A stretch of DNA of 32,000 nucleotides from contig JAHQXC010000004.1 in assembly GCA_029856525.1 (NCBI GenBank), forward strand, positions 1-32,000, given 5' to 3'. Of the stretch, positions 24,407 to 27,105 are shown piece by piece. Each line of letters begins with the position of its first letter. Position 1 is the first letter of the stretch. The stretch is from Candidatus Odinarchaeia archaeon (GTDB lineage: Archaea > Asgardarchaeota > Odinarchaeia > Odinarchaeales > Odinarchaeaceae). The position numbers were made by a program, and so were the translations under genes. Below the pieces are notes generated by a model. That model did not search any database and was not told the DNA's origin. It saw only the letters and a program-made list of their open reading frames with translations.

Positions 24407-24485
24407 ACCATTAAAAATATATTTTAGTTTTTCAACCTCTATCTTCGGGCCCGTAGCGAAGCCAGGACATCGCGCAGCCCTCCGG

Positions 24486-24497
24486 ATGATAGGGGGG
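24486..24497 (+). other. tRNA intron at canonical 37/38 position (12 nt)
   Basis: ATGATAGGGGGG. Exon CUCC (32-35) pairs with intron GGGG, with 3-nt bulges GGA on both strands (relaxed BHB). Confidence 0.85.
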
Positions 24498-24519
24498 AGG
24501 CTGAATTCACCGGTTCGAA

Positions 24520-24535
24520 TTCTATGAGACGGAAA
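24520..24535 (+). other. tRNA intron at non-canonical T-loop 59/60 position (16 nt)
   Basis: TTCTATGAGACGGAAA. UUCG (54-57) pairs with intron CGGA, bulges AAU on both strands, inner helix UCU/AGA, outer helix is the T stem. Removal gives TTCGAAT. Confidence 0.82.
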
Positions 24536-25064
24536 TCCGGTCGGGCCCGCCACGTTTAAAACCGCATGCTTTTATAAATTCATCGTTATCGACAGGTGTT
24601 ATAACAGCTGTGAGAGCACCCTCCTGGTATATTTCAAGTAGGTTTCTATCTCTTATTAATGCGGTTATTATCTTATCTCCGCTGCTTGCAAGCAGCGCTA
24701 GCTTCCTCTTAGAGGTTAATTCGTCTACCTTCTTGATCGCGGTAACTTTCTCTAAGGGTATTATTTTTTTCTCCAATCCGTTTTCTATTATAATCTGTTT
24801 CTCGGTTACAGCTAATCTTATAAACTTATATTTAATGTGAAAATAACCTCCTAAAGCTATTATAACGACGCCTATCGCTATAGAGAATAAAAGATTATAG
24901 AGTGATACTTCAGGAAACGGCATAAGAAAGTACACTACAGGGATAAGTGTGAAACCTATAATAATTAAAGGCAGAGATCTACGCCAGCTTGAAACTTTTA
25001 TTCTATCCTCATATATGAGATCTCTCTCGCATACTTCTCGATCACGTTTCAACGCATTTTCCAC
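24522..25064 (-). CDS. Membrane protein with two TM helices and a PH-like (bPH) C-terminal domain
   Basis: Two hydrophobic helices, then LAVTEKQIII...IPLEKVTAI pattern. Likely start is TTG at 25052 behind an AGGTGG SD. Confidence 0.65.
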   Translation of the reverse strand: MENALKRDREVCERDLIYEDRIKVSSWRRSLPLIIIGFTLIPVVYFLMPFPEVSLYNLLFSIAIGVVIIALGGYFHIKYKFIRLAVTEKQIIIENGLEKKIIPLEKVTAIKKVDELTSKRKLALLASSGDKIITALIRDRNLLEIYQEGALTAVITPVDNDEFIKACGFKRGGPDRISVS

Positions 25065-25305: not shown

Positions 25306-27105
25306 ATGGCGCGTATCGCTGTTTTAAAAAAATCTAGCTGTAAGTCTAGGGACTGCGGGAAACCTTGCATGACCTTCTGCCCAGGTGTTAGAATGGGTGA
25401 GGAGACTGTTAAATTCGAGGAAGGTTCAAAGTATCCTATTATATCAGAGGAGTTATGCAGCGGATGCGGTATATGCGTTAAGAAATGCCCTTTCAGAGCG
25501 ATCGCAATAGTTAATACCCCTGAAACGGTTGAAGAGGAGGCTTCTCATAGATATGGGGTTAATCAGTTTACGCTTTTCAGGCTTCCCATACCTAGACCTG
25601 GGAAGGTTCTAGGTATAATAGGTAGAAATGGAGCAGGTAAATCCACGGCTTTGAGAATACTCGCAGGTGAGATAAAACCTAACCTAGGTAATGTTCAAAA
25701 CCCCCCTGACTGGAATGAAATAATCCAGTTTTACAGGGGCTCCGAGCTTCAAGCGTATTTTGAAAAATTATCTAAAGGGGCTCTCAAAATAAGCTATAAA
25801 CCCCAGTATATTACGAATATACCTAAAGTTTACACTGGTATTGTAGGTGATTTAATAAGTAAGGTGGATGAACGTGGCGTTGCTGAAAAGTTGATGAAAG
25901 AGCTTTATTTAGAATCCATTTGGGGTAATCAGCTTTCAACTCTTTCAGGCGGTGAGCTTCAACGTGTAGCTATAGCTGCAACAATCGCTAAAGAAGCTGA
26001 AGTGTATCTTTTCGATGAACCTTCAAGTTATCTAGATATTTTTCAAAGAATTATAGCGGCTAAAATTATAAGAAGTTTAGCTGAAATCGGTAAAACTGTT
26101 ATCTGCGTGGAGCATGATTTAGCTGCCCTAGATTTTATAAGCGACTATACCTGTGTTATATTCGGTGAACCAGGCGTCTACGGTATTGTATCCCATCCCT
26201 ACGGTGTTAAAGAAGGGATAAACATTTTTTTAGACGGTTATCTTCCAGACGAGAATATCAGGTTTAGAGAGGAGAGTATCTCTTTCAGTAAAGCTCCTGC
26301 CATGCCTAAACTAGACTTGAAGACTACAGGTAGTTTACTAGAGTACAGCGGGTTTGAAATAAAATTAGACGGTTTTAAGCTTAAAGCTTCTAGCGGGGGT
26401 GTTAAAAAATCTGAGATTATAGGAATTTTAGGAGCTAACGGAATAGGTAAAACAACTTTCATAAAAGTTTTAGCCGGTTTACTTAAACCTGACACAGCTT
26501 TCACAGGAGTAGGCTCGCTGAAAATAAGCTATAAACCCCAGTATCTTGAAGGCGATTACACTGGTACTGTAAGAGAATTTCTTTTATCCGCTGCAGGCGC
26601 ATCTATCCTGGACTCTTCCGTTAAATCTAGTATAATCCATCCGTTGGAGCTTGAAGATTTAATGGATAAGTCTATTTCAATTTTAAGCGGCGGTGAACTT
26701 CAGAGAGTAGCTATAGCCGGGTGTCTTCTAAGAGACGCGGATATATATTTAATAGATGAGCCTAGCGCGTTTCTCGACGTTGAACAAAGGTTTGCAGCCG
26801 CTAAAACTATTAGGAGAATAGTGGAGTCTAAGAGTAAGGCTGCTTTTATAATAGAGCATGATCTTATCATGTGCGATTTAGTCTCGGATCGCTTAATAAT
26901 ATTTGAAGGCGAACCAGGCCGGCATGGACTAGCTAGTAGCCCTCAGGATATGCGTAGCGGAATGAACTCTTTCTTGAAAATGATGAATATAACGCTTAGA
27001 AGAGATGTTAAAACAGGTAGACCTAGAATAAATAAATTAGGGTCTAAACTCGACTCCGCGCAGAAATCGATAGGAGAATATTATTATGCGCCTGTAAAAA
27101 AATAA
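25306..27105 (+). CDS. rli: Ribosome recycling ATPase ABCE1/RLI
   Basis: N-terminal two-[4Fe-4S] ferredoxin Cys pattern, two ABC domains (GRNGAGKST, GANGIGKTT, LSGGELQR twice), GRPRINK..S C-terminus. Confidence 0.98.
   Translation: MARIAVLKKSSCKSRDCGKPCMTFCPGVRMGEETVKFEEGSKYPIISEELCSGCGICVKKCPFRAIAIVNTPETVEEEASHRYGVNQFTLFRLPIPRPGKVLGIIGRNGAGKSTALRILAGEIKPNLGNVQNPPDWNEIIQFYRGSELQAYFEKLSKGALKISYKPQYITNIPKVYTGIVGDLISKVDERGVAEKLMKELYLESIWGNQLSTLSGGELQRVAIAATIAKEAEVYLFDEPSSYLDIFQRIIAAKIIRSLAEIGKTVICVEHDLAALDFISDYTCVIFGEPGVYGIVSHPYGVKEGINIFLDGYLPDENIRFREESISFSKAPAMPKLDLKTTGSLLEYSGFEIKLDGFKLKASSGGVKKSEIIGILGANGIGKTTFIKVLAGLLKPDTAFTGVGSLKISYKPQYLEGDYTGTVREFLLSAAGASILDSSVKSSIIHPLELEDLMDKSISILSGGELQRVAIAGCLLRDADIYLIDEPSAFLDVEQRFAAAKTIRRIVESKSKAAFIIEHDLIMCDLVSDRLIIFEGEPGRHGLASSPQDMRSGMNSFLKMMNITLRRDVKTGRPRINKLGSKLDSAQKSIGEYYYAPVKK

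Follow-up and report, generated by a model that had tools for sequence, protein, structure and literature searches.

The window analyzed here, a stretch of 32,000 nucleotides, derives from an archaeal genome of 1.32 Mb with a G+C content of 38.5% and a completeness of 93% (G000). Between positions 24447 and 24552 of its plus strand lies an interrupted tRNA-Arg(CCG) gene, which is called by ARAGORN following in-silico splicing and for which a cloverleaf solver returns a unique solution scoring 30/30. The gene corresponds to a pre-tRNA of 106 nt with an encoded CCA (24550-24552) and has the layout GGGCCCG-UA-GCGA-(D-loop)-UCGC-G-CAGCC-CUCCGG-[12 nt]-A-GGCUG-AAUUC-ACCGG-UUCGAA-[16 nt]-U-CCGGU-CGGGCCC-G-CCA. 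Exon 1 (24447..24485), placed by ARAGORN and the solver and shared without change by the four genus genomes, spans tRNA positions 1-37, i.e., the 5′ strand of the acceptor stem, the D-arm, and the 5′ strand of the anticodon stem, and contains the anticodon CCG at 24482-24484. It is followed by intron 1 (24486..24497, ATGATAGGGGGG), a 12-nt insert at the canonical 37/38 position that is recovered by ARAGORN, a bulge-helix-bulge (BHB) search, and the solver. Exon 2 (24498..24519; ARAGORN and solver) covers positions 38-59, comprising the 3′ strand of the anticodon stem, the variable loop, the 5′ strand of the T-stem, and the T-loop segment UUCGAA. Intron 2 (24520..24535, TTCTATGAGACGGAAA), which consists of 16 nt inserted into the T-loop at 59/60 and is found by the BHB search and the solver, separates it from exon 3 (24536..24552; ARAGORN and solver), which supplies positions 60-73 and the CCA: U60, the 3′ strands of the T-stem and acceptor stem, and the discriminator G. 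All of these elements lie on the plus strand. The spliced tRNA-Arg(CCG) is a class I cloverleaf with U33, the T-loop UUCGAAU, and a G53:C61 pair.

Upstream of the gene, an A/T-rich box on the plus strand, AAAAATATATTTT (24413..24425), is centered ~27 nt before tRNA position 1 and, as read from the sequence alone, is likely an archaeal TATA-type promoter. The 3′ flank of the gene is conserved across the four genus genomes. An ORF of 180 residues harboring a bPH_4 (bacterial PH) domain (24522-25064, minus strand) runs antisense over the final 31 nt of the tRNA gene, and an ABCE1/RLI-like gene with 4Fe–4S domains and two ABC ATPase domains (25306-27105, plus strand) is found downstream.

Intron 2 adopts a strict hBHBh′ arrangement, in which the 5-bp T-stem is the outer helix (ACCGG/CCGGU), T-loop nucleotides U54-G57 pair with CGGA to give the central helix UUCG/CGGA, the two bulges are AA|U and AA|U, and a 3-bp inner helix (UCU/AGA) closes an AUG loop. 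In intron 1, the outer helix is the 5-bp anticodon stem and a 4-bp central helix (CUCC/GGGG) is flanked by the bulges GG|A and GG|A; because the inner helix is just 1 bp, this intron is classed as a relaxed BHB. Without constraints, the minimum-energy fold of the precursor at 37 °C differs from the BHB cloverleaf, which sits ~5 kcal/mol higher, and the minimum-energy fold at 60 °C is a near-BHB cloverleaf. Folding mismatches of this kind are common for bulged motifs that are stabilized by protein, and these organisms are thermophiles; we regard the 37 °C result as a caveat and not as a refutation.

Orthologs of the gene are present in three other genomes of the same genus, with 90-93% identity across the full precursor, and the assignment of two of these genomes (G001 and G003) to the Odinarchaeota upholds the initial identification of the host as an Asgard archaeon. 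In each of the four genomes, the solver returns the same unique 37/38 plus 59/60 architecture. Exon differences are confined to the variable loop, and the introns differ both in sequence and in length (12, 12, 14, and 12 nt for intron 1; 16, 17, 17, and 16 nt for intron 2). The T-loop BHB is kept in four of four genomes with all four central, five outer, and three inner pairs. Its inner helix varies among UCU/AGA, UUU/AAA, and UUU/AGA, which replaces a C:G pair by U:A or U:G, and the 3′ strand of its central helix is CGGA or CGAG, each of which pairs fully with UUCG. In intron 1 of one ortholog, that of G003, one pair of the central helix is mismatched. Divergent introns with conserved pairing are what selection on the splice motif would predict, with the covariation drawn from four related genomes that form a small and non-independent sample.

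The exact register of the T-loop insert is not apparent from the mature sequence, as cuts at 57/58, 58/59, 59/60, and 60/61 all give the identical T-loop UUCGAAU; that is, a shift of the 16-nt deletion by −2 to +1 nt has no effect on the product. The T-arm register is also slightly shifted in the 60 °C fold, and the gene could be genuine with its insert cut at 57/58, 58/59, or 60/61. We consider this very unlikely, since 59/60 is the only T-loop register that qualifies as a BHB, and two 3-nt bulges set 4 bp apart with flanking helices are found there alone among the neighboring candidates. Of the registers that it tried (56/57, 58/59, and 59/60), the first-pass annotation had singled out 59/60 as the only one offering the 4-bp UUCG/CGGA helix, two 3-nt bulges, and an inner helix, and our BHB search and solver concur. 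The 59/60 register is furthermore common to all four orthologs and to three additional tRNA genes of the same genome, discussed below.

No second Arg(CCG) gene was found in the host genome by ARAGORN, the Rfam tRNA model, or BLAST with the mature sequence, and none of the four genus genomes, one of which (G002) is a single contig, yielded an uninterrupted Arg(CCG) gene. Neither G000 nor G001 contains the spliced anticodon-arm junction, CCTCCGGAGG, and its occurrences in G002 and G003 lie outside any tRNA. An ARAGORN call of “Arg ccg” on contig C8 was entertained as a second Arg(CCG) gene and rejected, as this locus is a mis-spliced tRNA-Pro(CGG) with D-loop and 59/60 introns. CGG accounts for 6.8% of the Arg codons in 460 long ORFs, and a decoder is therefore needed. 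It could be argued that CGG is read by another tRNA, e.g., an Arg(UCG), whose gene could exist among the loci outside the resolved tRNA census, and that the interrupted gene is a pseudogene undergoing decay or a disabled copy that yields no mature tRNA. Such a scenario is scarcely credible for a gene with all stems perfectly paired and the conserved nucleotides intact (30/30), with exons that are kept across four genomes, the variable loop aside, while the introns and the flanking DNA diverge and the BHB pairing stays, and with an interrupted layout that is typical of most tRNA genes in this genome; that no other Arg(CCG) gene is detected further argues against it.

In raw DNA, the gene is invisible to the finders that we used. 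ARAGORN made zero tRNA calls on the unspliced window; Rfam at the gathering score left the locus unmatched, and a search of its 301-nt neighborhood at E ≤ 10 gave no match to the tRNA model, the sole match being a meaningless U6atac. Deletion of both 24486-24497 and 24520-24535 in silico leaves 78 nt including CCA, which ARAGORN calls as tRNA-Arg(ccg). When the T-loop insert alone is deleted, ARAGORN reports Arg(ccg) interrupted by 12 nt at the canonical intron position, and when the 12-nt insert alone is deleted, no call results. We also analyzed the locus with a custom, SPLITS-like exhaustive solver, which deletes BHB-bounded segments only and applies a strict cloverleaf score with a maximum of 30. 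A single solution was obtained, with 12 nt removed at 37/38 and 16 nt at 59/60 and a score of 30/30. The initial reading, that a cloverleaf forms only upon removal of 12 nt at 37/38 and 16 nt from the T-loop, agrees with both the ARAGORN deletions and this unique solution, and its warning that standard annotation may miss the gene proved apt for ARAGORN and the Rfam tRNA model, neither of which handled the introns and both of which came up blank. Here lies the main value of the locus, which is one of annotation: intron-unaware finders could make it seem that the genome lacks a tRNA to decode CGG. As a control for chance, the true acceptor stem was supplied free and the interior was swapped for 1000 shuffled and 1000 genomic interiors; scores >25 were reached by 0/1000 interior shuffles and 0/1000 genomic interiors. 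Arbitrary removal of segments does add degrees of freedom, and ARAGORN makes spurious calls at other mis-spliced loci, such as “Arg ccg” at the Pro(CGG) gene on C8, but the probability that free deletion of segments until a cloverleaf emerges produced a mere resemblance is practically nil, this explanation being refuted to a practical standard by the empty tally of 0/2000 controls even with the acceptor stem given, by the single solver solution, and by the ortholog conserved in three more genomes.

To place the gene among the other tRNAs of the genome, ARAGORN was run genome-wide on BHB-spliced candidates; this gave many miscalls (“tRNA-Stop,” “Pyl,” and the C8 “Arg ccg”) and was replaced by the stricter cloverleaf solver. 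We resolved 27 tRNA loci, of which 7 lack introns and 20 contain them, 13 of these with two, in a census that is a lower bound, with ~14 of the 41 strict-solver loci unresolved or false anchors. The survey, which had been suggested in the first-pass annotation, reveals at least three more genes with 59/60 introns and shows that most tRNA genes are interrupted. Strict-BHB introns at 59/60 are found in Arg(CCG), Arg(GCG), Pro(CGG), and Pro(UGG). The tRNA-Arg(GCG) gene (L049; G000:C111:14881-14997, minus strand) has the same architecture as Arg(CCG), with a 15-nt 37/38 intron, a 24-nt strict hBHBh′ intron at 59/60, and an encoded CCA. The tRNA-Pro(CGG) gene (L050; G000:C8:3873-3985, plus strand) harbors a D-loop intron of ~14-16 nt and a 19-nt 59/60 intron, and tRNA-Pro(UGG) (L051; G000:C13:3918-4048, minus strand) has introns of 28 nt in the variable loop and 26 nt at 59/60. 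Some 12 tRNA loci, e.g., C84:2465-2566, C97:2066-2167, C13:4065-4187, and C5:342-474, contain a variable-loop intron of 19-30 nt (~45/46 to 46/47). These introns are of the HBh′ type, which combines a central helix of 4 bp with a strong inner helix and lacks an outer one, and the variable loop looks like a second intron hotspot beside 59/60. The Asp and His tRNA genes have introns at 53/54. CCA is encoded by most other tRNA genes of the genome; the intron-less tRNA-Arg(UCU) (G000:C77:20609-20683, plus strand) and tRNA-Arg(CCU) (G000:C61:10414-10488, minus strand) are followed by CTC, not CCA.

The genome encodes two EndA paralogs, a 188-residue protein on contig C56 and a 187-residue protein on contig C61, each with both the N-terminal and the catalytic-type domain (PF02778 and PF01974). 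The C56 protein is closest to the catalytic alpha subunit from Aeropyrum pernix (3P1Z_B, E 6e-44), with which it aligns through AVYEHGPGIDHSPF...VRKKF and shares the Tyr/His/Lys triad. Its Crenarchaea-specific loop, GKPVGIRKPKVPEF, aligns ungapped to A. pernix GQPLDVEKPRGADF, with K44 on K44; this loop confers broad substrate specificity, and Lys44 recognizes RNA (Hirata 2011, PMC3241643). In the C61 protein, an alignment with 1A79 reveals that Ala replaces the catalytic His, as expected of a structural beta subunit. The enzyme that had been postulated from the tRNA gene, an endonuclease of broad specificity, finds its candidate subunits here, and classification of the EndA proteins, likewise proposed at the outset, gives a catalytic alpha subunit with the triad and the Lys44 loop (C56) and a beta subunit that lacks the catalytic His (C61). 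From homology and from the published assignment of related proteins (Kaneta 2018), we infer an (alpha-beta)2 heterotetramer with a broad substrate range. A gene for the ligase RtcB is also present (L048; G000:C95:1-1311, minus strand) as a fragment that is cut off by the contig end; it is split after ~residue 102 by an intein with Intein_splicing and LAGLIDADG_3 domains.

Collectively, we consider it very probable that the locus serves an Odinarchaeia (Asgard) archaeon as a functional tRNA-Arg(CCG) gene, the only one detected, with two introns that are spliced by proteins. The listed sequencing runs that contain this stretch are all of DNA, one of them probably from the source sample. From sequence, we infer that the gene is transcribed, where exactly it is cleaved, and that its exons are ligated, and propose the following route. 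The pre-tRNA of ~106 nt would probably be transcribed from the A/T-rich promoter ~27 nt upstream, and in this precursor, the anticodon stem and the T-stem would each extend into a BHB motif. Within each 4-bp helix, the exon would supply the 5′ strand (nucleotides 32-35 in one case, T-loop nucleotides 54-57 in the other), and the 3′ end of the intron would supply the 3′ strand. A heterotetramer-type EndA, assembled from the alpha subunit with its Crenarchaea-specific/L1 loop and the His-less beta subunit, would cut inside each 3-nt bulge and thereby free a 12-nt and a 16-nt intron. Ligation of the three exons by RtcB would yield a tRNA body of 75 nt, with the CCA already encoded.

Multi-intron tRNA genes with introns at non-canonical positions have reportedly been known from the Crenarchaeota/Thermoproteales since the work of Marck and Grosjean in 2003 and of Sugahara in 2007 and 2008. 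The tRNA genes of these organisms contain up to three BHB introns, and their (alpha-beta)2 EndA possesses the Crenarchaea-specific loop (PMC4090602, PMC3241643). The present genome belongs to another phylum, and its mix of intron positions is dominated by variable-loop and 59/60 sites. The first-pass annotation took such genes as a hallmark of the Thermoproteales, a view that does not hold, as they are not special to that order and have been published for Asgard archaea including Odinarchaeota LCB_4. According to Kaneta 2018 (PMC5829648), Odinarchaeota LCB_4 is among the Asgard archaea with an (alpha-beta)2 EndA and an L1 loop, and Asgard tRNA genes can contain several introns, some at non-canonical positions; that the tRNA sets are incomplete is taken to suggest hidden disrupted genes. 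Two later studies describe Asgard tRNA genes as heavily interrupted, with T-arm introns that have a canonical BHB and are common, and with introns that standard software misses (Valentin-Alvarado 2024, PMC11291895; Goswami 2026 preprint). The text of these Asgard papers, as far as it is accessible, leaves the tRNA-Arg(CCG) of this genome unnamed, and the census of Goswami 2026 focuses in its accessible part on Jordiarchaeia and Atabeyarchaeia, with Odinarchaeia unmentioned. The positions 59/60, 53/54, 45/46, and 30/31 are all known non-canonical intron sites (Yoshihisa 2014, PMC4090602).

A close parallel at 59/60 comes from ARMAN-2, in which the pre-tRNA-Pro(GGG) intron is a strict hBHBh′ and an archaeal endonuclease cuts the pre-tRNA-Cys(GCA) intron in vitro (Fujishima 2011, PMC3239211). 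As in the ARMAN-2 59/60 introns, the T-stem here is the outer helix and T-loop nucleotides form the exon strand of the central helix. ARMAN-2, however, is a member of the DPANN with an epsilon2 endonuclease, whereas the present host is an Asgard archaeon with alpha and beta subunits; the tRNA identity is different, and the second intron lies at 37/38 rather than at 53/54. The layout is thus of a kind already known in Asgard and other archaea, and the locus adds one more conserved example of heavily interrupted Asgard tRNA genes paired with a broad-specificity EndA to a published picture that remains unchanged.

Finally, comparison with other Asgard lineages bears on the history of these introns. 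An intron-less Arg(CCG) gene is found in ten genomes of other Asgard families, and it matches the mature layout predicted here. In the sister family (f2), neither pattern searches nor BLAST found an Arg(CCG) gene, a result from genomes that are 78-91% complete and one that does not imply absence. The sister-family genomes G004 and G005 contain an Arg(CCU) gene with a 30-nt variable-loop intron and an Arg(UCU) gene with two introns of 28 nt each, one in the variable loop and one at 59/60 (Arg(CCU)/Arg(UCU) at L055:1501-1608 and L057:1202-1335). Arg(UCU) and Arg(CCU) are intron-less in the genus of the window and interrupted in the sister family, which indicates that intron positions shift between close lineages. 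On a tentative reading, which we hold to be possible if somewhat short of evenly balanced, the 59/60 introns of Arg(CCG), Arg(GCG), Pro(CGG), and Pro(UGG) could be fairly recent gains in the Odinarchaeum lineage, with the T-arm supplying half of a BHB. The T-stem would provide the outer helix, the central helix would draw one of its strands from U54-R57, and A58-N59 would form the bulge, such that an insert ending in YGRR plus two nucleotides and containing a small hairpin could be spliced out of any tRNA straightaway. This reading fits the intron-less Arg(CCG) in the ten other-family genomes, the 59/60 intron of the sister-family Arg(UCU), and inserts of the 59/60 type in Woesearchaeota MAGs. 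If it is true, the genus would be a compact system for studying the arrival of archaeal tRNA introns.

The last-mentioned inserts occur in contigs labeled Woesearchaeota, “Methanosarcinales,” or “uncultured archaeon,” which contain tRNA genes with T-loop inserts of 31-37 nt at 59/60 and more inserts upstream. These tRNA genes contain the identical T-arm and 3′ strand of the acceptor stem, as in L043:3795-3851 (plus strand) and L045:2260-2320 (minus strand) and also in L042 and L046.
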